Assembly (NCBI RefSeq): GCF_000011805.1
Contig: NC_006841.2
Source: Aliivibrio fischeri ES114
GTDB lineage: Bacteria > Pseudomonadota > Gammaproteobacteria > Enterobacterales > Vibrionaceae
Direction: 5' to 3' (one strand)
Length of the DNA: 32,000 nt
The notes under the pieces are model-generated. The model had not been told where the DNA came from. It worked only from the letters and a program-made list of their open reading frames with translations, and did no database searches. This document shows positions 16,378 to 28,717 of the stretch, piece by piece (position 1 is the stretch's first letter; each line of letters opens with the position of its first letter). A program made the position numbers and the translations under genes.

Positions 16378-18273
16378 TTAAATTTTAAATCGCTTTATTT
16401 CTTTTTCTAACATATAAGCTAGTTCGAATACTTCCTTAGAATATTCTTCTGATTTTTGAGAATCATTTACTAACGTATTACATATATCTCTGATACCTAA
16501 TGTATTTCGATTTAACTCCGTAGTAACAGATGCTTGCTCTTCCGCTGCAGTAGATATTTGATATGCCATATCATTGATATTTTCTACTGAGCTATGAATG
16601 TTAGAAAAACCAGATAAATCTCTTTCAACTTGCTTTACACTTTCACTAGAAGTGCTATACGCCCTCCCCATAATAGAAACGACGTCAAAGATAGCAAGCT
16701 GAAGAGACTCTATCATTTGTTTAATTTCTTGAGTTGAAGACTGCGTTTTTTGGCTAAGAATTCTAACCTCATCCGCAACAACAGCAAATCCTCGACCATG
16801 CATTCCAGCTCTCGCAGCTTCAATAGCTGCATTTAAAGCAAGTAAATTAGTTTGTTCTGCAATATTATGAATAGTGAAGACAATAGTATTTATACTATTG
16901 CTTTGATCTTGCAACTTATTAATTTGATGATTCGCTTCATGAATATCTTGAGTCATTTCTGAAATCCGATTCATTGAGGACGCAATTGATTGAGAGCTCT
17001 CACTTGACATAATAACAGTGTCTTTAGATGTCTGAGCTGATAATTCAGCATTATTTGAAATCTCAATTGTTGCTGCTGACATTTGATGAACTGCCGTTGC
17101 CATCATATTAAGTTCATCAAGTTGATATCCAAGCTTTATATTATGCTCACCAATGAGTTCTGAAGATTCACGAGCATTAACTAACATTTTATTAATTATT
17201 TGATGAAGATTAGAAACCATTACATGTGTATTCTCAACAAATTTATTAAAACTAGATACAAGTGAACCTACTTCATCATTACTAGTATTTATTATCCTTT
17301 TTGTTAAATCAGCATCTCCACTAGCAATATCGGATAAAGCTAAAGATACTCTCTTTAAATCTGACATTACTATACGAATAAAAGAATAAGTAACCAATAT
17401 AGCCGCGATAGAAATAAACAAAGTCCACAGTAATAACTCTTTCAATAACTGTCTATAAGGTTGTTCTTCCATTTTTTTATCCAACTGAATACCAATATAC
17501 CAATCGGTACCATTAACTCTCTCAAAATAAAGATACTTGTCTTGACCATCAATTTTAATTGGCTTTATATTCTTAACTTTCGAGAGTTCACGTATATCGG
17601 TTAAAGATAATTCAGGGTATGCTTTTGAAACTGGTTTTAAAATCATGTTTGGATTATTATGAGCTAAAAAAGATCCAGTTAGCCCATTAACCAACACCGC
17701 AAAACCTTTATTTCCAACTTTATAAGCATTTACATTACTTATCAATTGGGATACAGGAACATCAACGGCAAATACACCATTCTGATAAAATTTAGACTTT
17801 AAAGGCTCTGCAATAGTAACCATCAACTCGCCTACTTGTTCATCATTATAAGCAGAGGTCACAATCTGACCATCAGCTTTCATTGCCAATTTATACCAAT
17901 CTCTAGTTTTTGGATCATAATCTTGTGGCAATGCATTCACAGAGTTAATGATCATTTCACCTGAATTCAATCCAATATAAGCATCAGAAAAATTAGTTGT
18001 TGAGCGAATCAAATCTAGTTTATTCGATAAATCATCGAGGGATGCTGAATTAGACAGAAATGAATGTGCAATTCTTTTTCTTATTTCGATCCAATCTGAA
18101 AGACCCATTGCAGCAGTTACAGTTATACCATGAGCACGTTCTAGTATTTCATTATGTGTTTGTTTATATAACTTATTGGCAGAGATAGATGTCAATATTG
18201 AAGCAGTTACAACAATTAATAAAACACAAACTGCAGTTATTTTTGTATCTAATTTAAAATCCTTAAAATTCAC
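16378..18273 (-). CDS. Methyl-accepting chemotaxis protein (dCache sensor), last gene of the pilus operon; AcfB/TcpI-like by context
   Basis: TM1, a periplasmic domain of about 260 aa, TM2, HAMP, and [35 protein letters not shown]. The GTG start overlaps the upstream stop (GTGA) and is preceded by AAGGAAAC. Confidence 0.9.
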
Positions 18274-18686
18274 TTGATTGTTTCCTTAAAATAGAACTGT
18301 GAAGTATCTACTTTGATTTCATTATAAAGTTCGCCACTATCACCAGTACATTCAGATATTAATGTCAATATTGATGGCGTATTATTAAATTCAACTAACA
18401 TCCTTAACGTAATATATTGCCTAGTGTCAAAAATTTCCTTAGCAAACACAGGTAACAATTTTTCTTTAAATTTACTTTCGACGAACTGACAAAAAAGTAA
18501 ATTAGCCTCTATCAATGATGAGTCACTGTCTTTTATTAATTCATTAAAACTACTTTTATTACAAAAAATAGTTTTATAACTATCATTACTATATAAAATA
18601 ACATCATCATTTAATGAACGTATAAAAGCAAATCCAACAAAATTATCAACAAATGTTTCAACCAGCATAAAAATTACCAACACCAT
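18270..18686 (-). CDS. Small cytoplasmic protein (132-138 aa), possibly PAS-like
   Basis: No signal peptide or TM helix. [30 protein letters not shown] resembles the N-terminal strands of a PAS fold (weak, by eye). The stop overlaps the MCP start. The start could be 18686 or 18668. Confidence 0.55.
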
Positions 18687-19534
18687 TCACGTAATAAATC
18701 AGCACCAGTAACAAATAATGAACCTCTTTGCCTTATACAAACAACAGGGGACATCCCTCGTTGGTTCTCAATATTATAAAATCGACCAGAATATCCTGGG
18801 GCACCATCGTGCCAAATTTCCATCCAAACATTTGTTGCTCCTGCTGGAATAGCATGTTTAGCCTGTCTCCAAGTTTTACGCCACGAGAAATCTCGTCCAT
18901 TTATTCTATATCCCCAATTGGTTCTTACCGTAAATGAACTCAAACTGCCAGATTGTAAAGTCCAAGGTTCATTATCCTTGAAATAATTACAATCATTTTC
19001 ATCACAAGATGAAGGATAAGAGCTAGAAACCAATCGCATAATCATCGCAGTATTATCATTGTCGGCATTAGAATTCTTAGGATATGCAATCTTAGCCTTA
19101 TTATTAAGAGTAGACCAAAACCAATAGCCAGAAGCAACTCCCTTTGGAACTAATCCATTTACAATCATATGATCTAATTGACCTAAAGTAGGAACACCAA
19201 ACTTATTTTGATTTTCTAGTTTGTAATTATTTGTAATCGACCATAAAGTTGATTCATTCACATGAGAAAAATAATTAAGTGATTTATCTGCAACGTTTTG
19301 ATCTATATAAACTCTTTTAAATGTGTCACCACCTATTTTTAAAGAAACGCTATCGCATAAATCATCAGATAATCCATCATTCCGACAAAAGCTATATGGT
19401 GCATTATAAATATCACGGACTCCAGCTAAAGTTCTGTCATCATAAGATGATACTGATTCATAGCTACTATCAAATGCGAATATATTAAAAGATGTTAATA
19501 ATAAAAAAAAACATGATTTATTTAAACAATACAT
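18674..19534 (-). CDS. Secreted protein in the TcpF position, with a TcpF-like signal peptide and mature N-terminus
   Basis: The signal peptide and cleavage region LLLTSFNIFA/FDSSYESVS resemble V. cholerae TcpF as I recall it (ITSFNSFA/FNDNYSSTS). Starts 3 nt after the platform-protein stop. The body is Trp/Cys-rich. Confidence 0.7.
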   Translation of the reverse strand: MYCLNKSCFFLLLTSFNIFAFDSSYESVSSYDDRTLAGVRDIYNAPYSFCRNDGLSDDLCDSVSLKIGGDTFKRVYIDQNVADKSLNYFSHVNESTLWSITNNYKLENQNKFGVPTLGQLDHMIVNGLVPKGVASGYWFWSTLNNKAKIAYPKNSNADNDNTAMIMRLVSSSYPSSCDENDCNYFKDNEPWTLQSGSLSSFTVRTNWGYRINGRDFSWRKTWRQAKHAIPAGATNVWMEIWHDGAPGYSGRFYNIENQRGMSPVVCIRQRGSLFVTGADLLREWCW

Positions 19535-19537
19535 AAT

Positions 19538-27037: not shown

Positions 27038-27056
27038 TGTTCCAACCTAAAAGTAA

Positions 27057-27683
27057 TTAACGATTACCAACAAAAACATCAAAGTACGAATCACCCGCAC
27101 CTGGCCCACCACACAGAGCCGAGATGTGGTCAAGATTTGTAAGATCTAAAGTTTTAGCACCACCTTTTGTTGATTTAATAACTCCAACTGATTTTGTTGC
27201 ATCTGGGTCAACATAAAAATCCGCCGCCATTGCTGTACCTCTATTTTGTACTTCAATAAAACTAAATAGATCTGCTGAGTTACTTATTAACGAGGTACAT
27301 TGATCTTTTGACAAATCAGATACTTTAATAGCAAAACCACGGTTAGCCGCCTTGTTGTCCTTAGCTGTAAAGATCAACATTGGAGCACCCGTAAATGGGT
27401 TGATTAAATCTGATTCAGTAACTCTCCCCATAGACACTAATGCATCAGTTAACTTTTTAGCCTTAACTGCATCTTGAAGAACATCAGGATAACTTTGCTT
27501 ACTTCTATAAGTTTGAACCATTGCGGTTTGAATAGTATTTAACGCTTGCGATAACTTAGATACATTCTGATTATCGATTGCTCTTTGAGCTAGGATTACA
27601 ACACCGGCAGAAATGACACCCATAATGCCTAAAACGATAATCACTTCTAGTAAGGTCATACCTCGTTGTTTTTTTAAATTCAT
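27057..27683 (-). CDS. tcpA: Type IVb major pilin, TcpA homologue
   Basis: MNLKKQRG/MTLLEVIIVLGIMGVISAGVVILAQRAIDNQN is nearly identical to the mature TcpA N-terminus as recalled. C-terminal similarity SVGVIKS...LDLTNLDHISALC. A Cys pair brackets the D-region. Confidence 0.92.
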   Translation of the reverse strand: MNLKKQRGMTLLEVIIVLGIMGVISAGVVILAQRAIDNQNVSKLSQALNTIQTAMVQTYRSKQSYPDVLQDAVKAKKLTDALVSMGRVTESDLINPFTGAPMLIFTAKDNKAANRGFAIKVSDLSKDQCTSLISNSADLFSFIEVQNRGTAMAADFYVDPDATKSVGVIKSTKGGAKTLDLTNLDHISALCGGPGAGDSYFDVFVGNR

Positions 27684-27943
27684 TTTTACACCAATTGAAG
27701 ATTATTTTTTGTTTGTAGATAGCAACGTTCAAAACGCCACAATTTCAAGAAAAATAGATTATCTTGTTTTTTCAATGCTACAGATAAAAAAAAAGAAAAC
27801 ACATCAATTTGCGCACTATACGACACAAAAAGCGAATTACTTTTTCTTCAGTGTTGCTATTGAATAAAATAAAGCAGATTCTAGCCGAAATAAGAGGATT
27901 AGGAATGTTCTTTTCCAACAACTATATTTAATGTGTCGTAATT

Positions 27944-28717
27944 ATGGTATCACTAATAAATAGTTTTAAACTTCAATTCACTGAAGTAAGTCACACTATA
28001 GAGCAACCATTTGTTCTATATTTTTCTGGTTTTTCAGGTATAATAAAAGATGAGGAAATAAAGAAATCCGGAAGGAATTGTTTAATACTTGTAAACGAAA
28101 TAGAAAAAAATTCCATCTATGATGTAGTAATGAAAAAGACCATCTTCATAAACAATACACCTTTAATATATACGGCCGGTTACGATGTAAAAATCAAGCC
28201 TCAATCTCAAGTTATATTAATAGATCTTTCATTCTTTGAAAAACTAGGCGTTCCATCGTTCAAAAGTGGGCTAATTACCCATATTCATTCGCGATTAATT
28301 AGACTATTACTAGAATCTATTTGTAGCTCAGTAAAGCCAACTTATGAATTACTTGCTTTAGTGAATCTTATAGGTGTTGATCATTACAAAACCAACTTAA
28401 ATGACAACTTAAACAAAATAAAAGACAAGATTGAAGAGTGTTATTCTTGCGAAGAATTTAACTTAGACATGCTCTGTAAAAAAACGCACATGTCAAGAAG
28501 AAAAATACAATATATACTTGCAGATTCCAATACTTCATTTCTAGAAATATTAAATAATTTACGAATAGATAAGCTAATATACTTCATGCAGAAAGAACCA
28601 AAGACATCCATAGGGGTGTTAATTTACAGAGTTGGGTTTAAACACCAAAGTACCGCTAATAGATTATTTAAAAAATATAAGAATGTCAGCATTCGAGAAT
28701 TTAAAAAATCAATATAA
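27944..28717 (+). CDS. AraC-family transcriptional regulator divergent from the pilin gene (ToxT-analogous by position)
   Basis: C-terminal double HTH (MSRRKIQYILADSNTSFLEILNNLRIDKLIYFM...YRVGFKHQSTANRLFKKYKNVSIREF) with an N-terminal domain of about 160 aa that I could not assign. Confidence 0.85.
   Translation: MVSLINSFKLQFTEVSHTIEQPFVLYFSGFSGIIKDEEIKKSGRNCLILVNEIEKNSIYDVVMKKTIFINNTPLIYTAGYDVKIKPQSQVILIDLSFFEKLGVPSFKSGLITHIHSRLIRLLLESICSSVKPTYELLALVNLIGVDHYKTNLNDNLNKIKDKIEECYSCEEFNLDMLCKKTHMSRRKIQYILADSNTSFLEILNNLRIDKLIYFMQKEPKTSIGVLIYRVGFKHQSTANRLFKKYKNVSIREFKKSI

Follow-up and report, generated by a model that had tools for sequence, protein, structure and literature searches.

We analysed a 32,000-nucleotide window of Aliivibrio fischeri ES114 chromosome II, which contains a gene cluster resembling the locus for the toxin-coregulated pilus (TCP) of Vibrio cholerae. 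At VF_A0865–VF_A0876, a listing of open reading frames (ORFs) gave 12 co-directional minus-strand genes running from position 27683 down to 16378 of the window. The listing reproduced the coordinates and protein sizes that a first-pass annotation had given for these genes, and its claim that consecutive genes are parted by 19 nt or less, or overlap, held when the best-supported start codons were used. A single start was revised: gene 11 had been begun at 18686, and ATG 18668 is the likelier start because homologues align from that methionine, giving a protein of 132 aa as in RefSeq WP_053044367. From the pilin gene onward, the junctions comprise gaps of 19 nt (tcpA/tcpB), 4 nt (tcpB/tcpQ, with the TcpQ start at 25695) and 4 nt (tcpQ/tcpC), overlaps of 14 nt (tcpC and the gene at the TcpR position) and 19 nt (that gene and tcpD), a 13-nt gap (tcpD/tcpS), an ATGA overlap at 22028-22031 (tcpS/tcpT), a 47-nt overlap (tcpT/tcpE, with the TcpE start at 20584), gaps of 3 nt (tcpE/gene 10) and 5 nt (gene 10/gene 11), and a GTGA overlap at 18270-18273 (gene 11/chemoreceptor gene). 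Twelve same-strand genes so closely spaced, most of them matching specific Tcp families, are far more than chance would produce.

The locus was already known and annotated. GenBank and RefSeq label genes in it TcpA, TcpB, TcpC, TcpS and TcpF, and Bennett et al. 2020 stated that ES114, alone among 66 V. fischeri genomes, carries annotated tcpFETSD and tcpCQBA homologues, and reported that V. fischeri has no toxT. Our literature search found no functional paper on any gene from VF_A0865 to VF_A0876, and VF_A0865 and most of the others were not mentioned at all; the suggestion in the first-pass annotation of a TCP-like locus that is known yet functionally uncharacterised was therefore correct.

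The first nine genes, all on the minus strand, encode the pilus machinery, and Pfam, PDB and BLAST searches connected TcpA, B, Q, C, D, S, T and E to their Tcp families. The first gene, tcpA (VF_A0875, 27057..27683), encodes a major type IVb pilin of 208 aa that matches the Pfam families TcpA (PF05946, E=1e-71) and N_methyl as well as the V. cholerae TcpA structure (PDB 8uhf, E=3e-48), and its two C-terminal cysteines, Cys129 and Cys191, are invariant in the alignment. It is followed by tcpB (VF_A0874, 25700..27037), whose 445-aa minor pilin matches V. cholerae TcpB (PDB 7w63) over residues 74-440 with E=1.6e-36. The outer-membrane components are represented by tcpQ (25183..25695; secretin partner, 170 aa), with a PF10671 match (E=4e-18) and 38% identity to V. 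cholerae TcpQ over 81 aa (BLAST, E=1.8e-15), and by tcpC (VF_A0872, 23724..25178; lipoprotein secretin, 484 aa), which is 40% identical to V. cholerae TcpC over 492 aa (BLAST, E=7e-124). The Pfam Secretin model scored below threshold on TcpC (23.6 vs 27.5 bits), and the NCBIfam model for PilN-type IVB secretins matched with E=5e-18. Next to the gene at the TcpR position, tcpD (22491..23276) encodes a bitopic inner-membrane protein of 261 aa outside any Pfam family, with 23.6% identity to V. cholerae TcpD over 267 aa (BLAST, E=2e-16). The product of tcpS (VF_A0869, 22028..22477), a periplasmic protein of 149 aa, belongs to the Pfam family TcpS (PF17456, E=2.4e-77); a word-indexed homologue search with it returned two proteins only. 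Finally, tcpT (20538..22031) encodes the 497-aa assembly ATPase (T2SSE, E=4.5e-88; 48% identity to V. cholerae TcpT in BLAST, E=3e-154) and tcpE (VF_A0867, 19538..20584) the 348-aa platform protein (T2SSF, E=5e-18; 43.5% identity to V. cholerae TcpE in BLAST, E=7e-94).

The remaining core gene, VF_A0871 (23258..23737), is annotated as hypothetical and was assigned by position. Its 159-aa product, which ends in a membrane anchor, is present in all related loci with 28-40% identity. It gave no BLAST match to V. cholerae TcpR, and a profile of five sequences aligned with TcpR at 12.8% probability in hhalign (E=0.002), as a collinear N-terminal match. The two proteins have in common their position, their size, an N-terminal (V/I)WL..SD motif and the C-terminal anchor. 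Overall, the order A-B-Q-C-R-D-S-T-E-F is that of the V. cholerae locus, and the cluster is colinear with seven other TCP-like loci. These matches support the core of the earlier reading, namely that the locus is a TCP-like type IVb pilus cluster.

Both pilins carry short leaders: that of TcpA has 8 aa (MNLKKQRG, followed by MTLLE), compared with 25 aa in V. cholerae, and that of TcpB has 7 aa in front of a mature N-terminus ATLLE, with Glu5 present. Long-leader type IVb prepilins are processed by dedicated peptidases. Pfam scans of the ORFs in the window revealed neither a prepilin peptidase nor a second, PilT-like ATPase, and no ORF there has the size of a peptidase. From the leaders of 7-8 residues and the absence of tcpJ, we infer that a housekeeping PilD-type peptidase would process the pilins. 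The first-pass annotation was thus right about both absences; its listing of the retraction ATPase as a difference from V. cholerae does not stand, since V. cholerae TCP also lacks such an enzyme and retracts through TcpB (Oki et al. 2022). In the machine that these genes predict, TcpA would build the filament, TcpT would power assembly on the TcpE platform, TcpR, TcpD and TcpS would form an inner-membrane/periplasmic subcomplex, and TcpC and TcpQ the outer-membrane channel. The minor pilin TcpB would prime assembly and, through its Glu5, trigger retraction without a retraction ATPase.

Divergently from tcpA, across an AT-rich spacer of 260 bp with low-complexity repeats, lies VF_A0876 (27944..28717, plus strand), which encodes an AraC-family regulator of 257 aa (Pfam HTH_18, E=9e-13), as had been noted before. 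It has no match in the PDB, ToxT structures included, and we rejected it as a ToxT orthologue, because the helix-turn-helix region alone matches (27% over 77 residues). VF_A0876 is the probable activator of the operon, in the role of ToxT. The toxT-tcpJ block that was said to be missing after the tenth gene is indeed not there, and Pfam scans and a comparison with ToxT located neither gene in the window. On the far side of the regulator, the stretch 28822..31632 contains a ParA-like gene (VF_A0877, 28822-29463, minus strand; Pfam CbiA/ParA), two small ORFs and a gene for an EAL protein (VF_A0879, 30562-31632, minus strand; Pfam EAL) whose N-terminal ~130 aa have no assigned domain; this stretch is found in ES114 only and has a GC content of 26-31%.

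To tell core from island genes, we used the size of protein clusters at 90% identity. Core genes of the window fall into clusters drawn from many A. fischeri strains (hcr, 52 members; NorR2, 43; the chemoreceptor VF_A0859, 42; VF_A0861, 27), compared with one to five members, of ES114 type only, for VF_A0865, gene 11, the tcp genes, VF_A0876, VF_A0877, VF_A0878 and VF_A0879. GC content falls from 38-42% in the core to 25-34% in the island. Together, the small ES114-only clusters and the drop in GC assign the chemoreceptor and the PAS gene to the acquired island. Its presumed left border is the interval 14949-16377, 1.4 kb with no ORF above 66 aa and a GC content of 28-33%, and its right border lies past the end of the window. 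Within the window we saw no integrase or insertion-site repeat, and searches for tRNA genes and Rfam families were negative. A genome scan with the TcpA alignment had no match in the A. fischeri species representative, which agrees with a restriction to ES114.

The tenth gene (VF_A0866, 18674..19534, minus strand) encodes a TcpF-like secreted protein of 286 aa. After a Sec signal peptide, its mature N-terminus reads FDSSYESVS, an exact fit to FxxxYxSxS, the type IVb pilus secretion signal of TcpF, which A. fischeri is among the species to keep (Oki et al. 2022). In hhalign, the protein matched V. cholerae TcpF with 96% probability (E=5e-9) over residues 1-171 only. Full-length homologues with 40-43% identity occur in Enterovibrio coralii and in V. 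cholerae GCA_003349145.1, and none of the three proteins matches the TcpF family PF06340, on which the V. cholerae TcpF control scored 760 bits. The C-terminal 115 residues of gene 10 matched nothing in PDB sequence and profile searches or in Pfam, and a metagenome scan with the gene 10 alignment found nothing. The likeness to TcpF thus holds for the signal peptide, the secretion motif and the N-terminal domain, and fails for the PF06340 match and the C-terminus. By its sequence, the product is a chimeric TcpF-like cargo, with a TcpF-type N-terminal domain joined to an unrelated C-terminal part. As a separate observation, V. cholerae TcpF (L011 18160-19176) weakly touches a model of the Lcl C-terminal domain near WEIPTRDQIETL (E=0.26), and the same stretch, 'PTLGQL', forms invariant columns in gene 10 (18674-19534) and its homologues, which may hint that the TcpF-like N-terminal domain is lectin-like.

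In V. cholerae, TcpB His366 stacks on Tyr5 of TcpF, Ser373 holds the amine of Phe1, and Arg408 pairs with Asp3 (Oki et al. 2022). The equivalents of His366 and Ser373 do not vary among the six TcpB proteins that we compared. At the position of Arg408, ES114 TcpB has Asn and the gene 10 product has Ser at position 3, so that both sides of the salt bridge have changed. This pattern supports a cognate TcpB-cargo pair that would work as in V. cholerae: a TcpB trimer at the pilus tip would bind the TcpF-like protein by its FxxxY N-terminus and carry this cargo outside.

Two sensory genes follow, both of which the first-pass annotation had recognised. Gene 11 (18270..18668, minus strand), described there as a small PAS-like protein, is missing from the original GenBank annotation. 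The AlphaFold2 model of this stand-alone protein (pLDDT 81, pTM 0.76) has the PAS order of elements, a five-stranded antiparallel sheet with flanking helices, and all of its top 50 Foldseek matches in the PDB are PAS domains (probability 0.98-1.00), so that the model bears out a predicted PAS fold. At the level of Pfam, gene 11 has no PAS match; three of 27 family members match weakly (best E=0.004), and no Pfam model fits. The chemoreceptor gene VF_A0865 (16378..18273, minus strand) encodes 631 aa with the Pfam domains dCache_1 (2.4e-20), HAMP (3.6e-10) and MCPsignal (3e-39), which confirms the earlier call. The nearest PDB structures to its sensor domain are those of PctC, PctB, PctA, Mlp24 and Mlp37 (E=2.5e-24 to 4e-15). 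Its residues Y119, R124, W126, Y142 and D171 correspond, with identical spacing, to PctA Y121/R126/W128, Y144 and D173. The published motif is complete, which predicts an amino-acid-type (dCache_1AA) chemoreceptor. The same motif is absent from V. cholerae TcpI and from the core paralogue VF_A0859. VF_A0865 was considered as a TcpI orthologue and rejected, as its 26.8% identity to TcpI is no better than that to VF_A0859 (26%).

The GTG start of VF_A0865 overlaps the stop of gene 11, and an AAGGAA Shine-Dalgarno sequence precedes it inside gene 11. A terminator-like hairpin of 12 pairs (16310..16339, minus strand; terminator scan) lies 39 nt past the chemoreceptor stop, and no other strong minus-strand hairpin lies outside coding sequence in 16-28 kb. 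From the small gaps and overlaps, the internal Shine-Dalgarno sequence and the single, late hairpin, we infer that the sensory genes are part of a 12-gene operon. The PAS gene and the chemoreceptor gene would then probably be read through from the pilus promoter, and piliated cells would also gain a chemoreceptor for host cues.

Relatives of the cluster were found by a genome scan with a TcpA alignment and by look-ups of contigs, with V. cholerae GCA_003349145.1 (L022 1-12916) added later. TCP-like loci occur in E. coralii CAIM 912, two uncultured Enterovibrio metagenome-assembled genomes (MAGs), V. ichthyoenteri, a Vibrionaceae MAG, V. cholerae ATCC 14035 and V. cholerae GCA_003349145.1. All of these but V. 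cholerae ATCC 14035 are environmental clusters. ES114 TcpA, C, T and E are 55-67% identical to their counterparts in the environmental clusters, versus 40-50% for classical V. cholerae, which places the ES114 island, as judged by sequence, in an 'environmental' TCP lineage to which Enterovibrio, V. ichthyoenteri and some V. cholerae strains also belong. The environmental clusters share with ES114 the nine core genes and the short leaders and likewise carry no peptidase gene, and both E. coralii and V. cholerae GCA_003349145.1 carry gene 10 homologues and PAS-family genes, E. coralii also an AraC homologue. Unlike in ES114, the MAG loci lack a tail, and the PAS, AraC and EAL genes of E. coralii stand upstream of tcpA. 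A dCache_1 amino-acid-type chemoreceptor and a ParA-like gene occur in ES114 alone among the compared clusters, VF_A0877 having no counterpart in any sister locus.

The cluster of V. cholerae GCA_003349145.1 is of ES114/Enterovibrio type (TcpC/T/E 61-65% identity) and distinct from the TCP of Vibrio pathogenicity island 1 (VPI-1). Its tail consists of a tcpF-like gene, a PAS gene, a receiver-like gene and a gene for a soluble MCPsignal+CZB chemoreceptor, followed by IS66. The gene 10 homologue (43% identity) has the N-terminus FNADYDSTS and overlaps the PAS gene (41% identity), a junction that we liken to that of ES114. Two further observations concern E. coralii. Its cluster (L006 10001-18207) seems to be damaged or wrongly assembled, with the N-terminus of TcpB out of frame, TcpE divided between ORFs 17109-17825 and 17827-18207, and no in-frame start codon for TcpA before MTLLE. 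Moreover, it encodes two proteins with FxxxYxS N-termini (L006 6743-7645 and 18191-19066; FQADYESS and FNGDYESKS), one of them outside the operon, and this pair of signal-bearing proteins suggests that a TCP-like pilus may have more than one cargo.

On the whole, we think it likely that ES114 carries a horizontally acquired, low-GC, strain-specific TCP-like island of the environmental lineage, with a V. cholerae-like machine and a sensory tail that is read through from the pilus genes. Several findings count against this interpretation. The gene at the TcpR position is a positional equivalent of TcpR by place, size and topology only and lacks a statistical link to it. A single-sequence AlphaFold model of gene 10 (pLDDT 33) was unusable, and ES114 TcpB keeps neither Ser388 (Gly) nor Arg408 (Asn). 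The ES114 tcp genes were unresponsive to the TcpP homologue HbtR (Bennett et al. 2020). As to the tail, a promoter scan of this AT-rich DNA was uninformative (75 sites vs 80.8 expected in shuffled sequence), and PAS genes across genomes are accompanied by AraC regulator or EAL genes more often than by a chemoreceptor gene. Five related TCP-like loci have no chemoreceptor gene, and three of these five have no tcpF-like gene after tcpE. The chemoreceptors of ES114 and V. cholerae GCA_003349145.1 differ in type, transmembrane with dCache_1 in the former and soluble with a CZB domain in the latter, and resemble each other in the signalling domain only; in the V. cholerae genome, moreover, gaps of ~200 nt part the PAS, receiver-like and chemoreceptor genes.

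These differences in receptor type and spacing, together with the fact that most related TCP-like loci stop at tcpE or tcpF without sensory genes, would suit a pilus operon that ends at the tcpF-like gene, with the PAS and chemoreceptor genes as independent island passengers under promoters of their own; promoter-like hexamers do lie in the 3' end of gene 10, for example at 18815-18788 on the minus strand. We nevertheless regard this alternative as doubtful. Such sites are no commoner than in shuffled sequence, no convincing terminator precedes the end of the chemoreceptor gene, and the tail is tied together by the 5-nt gap, the 4-nt GTGA overlap and the chemoreceptor Shine-Dalgarno sequence within gene 11. 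In addition, the tcpF-like/PAS overlap is kept in the second genome at 41-43% protein identity.

Another alternative is that ES114 carries the cluster as a silent or decaying relic and makes no pilus with it for want of TcpJ, ToxT, TcpP and TcpH. In keeping with it, neither tcpJ nor toxT lies in the window, the cluster is confined to one of 66 V. fischeri genomes and is not under HbtR, tcpF and tcpE of ES114 carry mutation-prone repeats (Dillon et al. 2016), the E. coralii cluster appears damaged, and our literature search found no functional paper on VF_A0865-0876. All 12 ORFs are intact, however, and key residues are conserved: Glu5, the cysteines of the pilin, the pocket of TcpB, the FxxxY motif of the cargo and a Walker-type domain in the ATPase. 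With leaders so short, a housekeeping peptidase could plausibly process the pilins, and the island has an AraC regulator of its own with conserved homologues in sister islands. A relic thus seems unlikely to us, and an intact pilus island with its sensory tail remains the preferred interpretation.

The PAS protein belongs to a family that word-indexed searches barely reveal: they returned one protein with gene 11 and five with the PAS alignment, and an exhaustive HMMER search of 1.8 billion proteins was needed to obtain 34 representative clusters, mostly of 120-140 aa. All named members are from Vibrionaceae. A metagenome scan with the PAS alignment found nothing, and the longer family members contain no informative domain fusion. 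A tblastn search of plasmids with gene 10 and gene 11 gave no match, and thus no link to the accessory genes of enteropathogenic Escherichia coli (EPEC) per/bfp or enterotoxigenic E. coli (ETEC) cof/lng.

We counted the neighbours of PAS genes over seven independent contexts with usable flanks. A homologue of VF_A0876 or an AraC-family match occurs in four of them (E. coralii, L016, ES114 and L018), an EAL gene within 12 kb in four (ES114, E. coralii, L016 and L021), a TCP cluster in three (ES114, L022 and E. coralii), an AcfD-like M60 peptidase gene in two (L016 and L018) and a chemoreceptor gene in two (ES114 and L022). Full-length VF_A0876 homologues divergently adjoin the PAS gene in E. 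coralii (29%, E=5e-24) and in the metagenomic L016 (36%, E=2e-47); the AraC gene lies 9 kb from the PAS gene in ES114, and L018 has a shorter match (34% over 90 aa) 4 kb away. In two uncultured Vibrionaceae (L016 1-10375 and L018 1-16384), the PAS genes sit by genes for an AcfD-like M60 peptidase, an OmpA-like protein and a CS1-type fimbrial usher. The neighbourhoods point to a regulatory toolkit common to several kinds of colonisation factor and thus depict the PAS family as a predicted accessory of colonisation islands in the Vibrionaceae that is found most often with AraC and EAL regulators.

Because PAS genes occur most often with AraC and EAL genes, gene neighbourhood favours a role as a regulatory partner. 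The PAS protein would be a small cytoplasmic signal-input partner of the AraC protein and of the cyclic di-GMP (c-di-GMP) EAL protein, and the place of its gene at the operon end in ES114 would let it feed back on expression. Alternatively, it could serve as a cytoplasmic input or adaptor of a chemotaxis array together with the adjacent chemoreceptor, and not as a partner of AraC and EAL proteins. The translational coupling of the two genes in ES114 speaks for such a role, as does the order in V. cholerae L022, where receiver-like and chemoreceptor genes come after the PAS gene. We consider this improbable, given that five other contexts have no chemoreceptor gene near the PAS gene, that a divergent AraC homologue adjoins it in two contexts and an EAL gene lies less than 12 kb away in four, and that the ES114 and L022 chemoreceptors are alike only in the generic signalling domain. 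As for the partnership with AraC and EAL proteins, its most far-reaching form is speculative, and we rate it as rather unlikely: the PAS proteins would be an undescribed, Vibrionaceae-restricted family of stand-alone sensors that forms, with a distinct AraC subfamily and EAL phosphodiesterases, a regulatory module of TCP/Acf-type islands, serving in trans the function for which ToxT has a ligand-binding domain of its own, and that has been wired with a chemoreceptor into the pilus operon in ES114 and one V. cholerae lineage. If this were true, the pilus, cargo secretion and chemotaxis to host amino acids would be expressed as one unit with built-in feedback.

Elsewhere in the window, at 6976-10297 and ~6 kb from the TCP island, we observed a core trio whose layout is like that of tcpI/tcpP-tcpH: VF_A0859 (minus strand), VF_A0860 and VF_A0861 (both plus strand). 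Along its entire length, the chemoreceptor VF_A0859 has 32% identity to TcpI, and it is a closer TcpI homologue than VF_A0865. VF_A0860, a winged-helix protein with a C-terminal membrane anchor, matches TcpP weakly (29% over 116 aa), and VF_A0861 (152 aa) has no similarity to TcpH. The VF_A0860/VF_A0861 pair forms a pocket of 25% GC and yet is species-wide.

Compared with the V. cholerae tcpA-B-Q-C-R-D-S-T-E-F locus of VPI-1, the ES114 cluster has the same gene order and near-identical gene sizes, the FxxxYxSxS signal on its tenth product, and the equivalents of TcpB His366 and Ser373; its proteins are only 24-50% identical to those of VPI-1. Unlike V. cholerae, ES114 has no tcpJ, toxT, or island-borne tcpPH or tcpI, its regulator belongs to another AraC subfamily than ToxT and stands upstream, and a PAS gene and a chemoreceptor gene occupy the 3' end of the putative operon. 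A chemoreceptor linked to TCP is not new in kind, since the V. cholerae TCP island encodes TcpI (VC0825) and AcfB (VC0840), which are ToxT-dependent, co-regulated with the pilus, and contribute to colonisation; VF_A0865 is likewise encoded in a TCP island and is not a TcpI orthologue. In its sensor domain, VF_A0865 resembles PctA/B/C of Pseudomonas aeruginosa and Mlp24/Mlp37 of V. cholerae, with which it has the dCache_1AA motif Y-R-W...Y...D in common, except that its gene is embedded in a putative pilus operon and the genes for dCache_1AA receptors stand alone.

Among other type IVb pili, a close parallel is colonisation factor antigen III (CFA/III, Cof) or Longus of ETEC with CofJ. These follow the principle proposed for ES114: the operon also encodes a secreted protein, whose N-terminus is held by a minor-pilin trimer at the tip. 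CofA is detectably related to the ES114 pilin (PDB 9iuf, E=2.5e-21). The secretion motif of CofJ is SxGGAFT, unlike FxxxYxSxS in ES114, and Cof carries its own prepilin peptidase. Gene 11, in turn, has a predicted PAS fold like the N-terminal PAS domain of F-plasmid TraJ (4kqd, TM up to 0.66) and V. cholerae VqmA (6kju), which are among its best structural matches. In TraJ and VqmA, the PAS domain is joined to a DNA-binding domain through which pilus or virulence genes are activated, whereas gene 11 stands alone and has 12-14% identity to them.

Our additions to what was known are incremental: for the PAS family a predicted fold and a distribution, for the chemoreceptor an amino-acid motif, for the TcpF-like cargo a chimeric make-up, together with the short leaders and another genome that has a like tail. 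The PAS family, the coupled chemoreceptor, the short leaders and the chimeric cargo leave the understanding of such systems unchanged. The value of the locus is that of a natural comparison for the main colonisation pilus of cholera, in a squid symbiont that is harmless and genetically tractable. Being intact yet without ToxT, TcpJ and island-borne TcpPH, it could separate the machine-intrinsic traits of TCP, for which retraction by TcpB and secretion at the pilus tip by way of the FxxxY signal are candidates, from the regulatory context of cholera.

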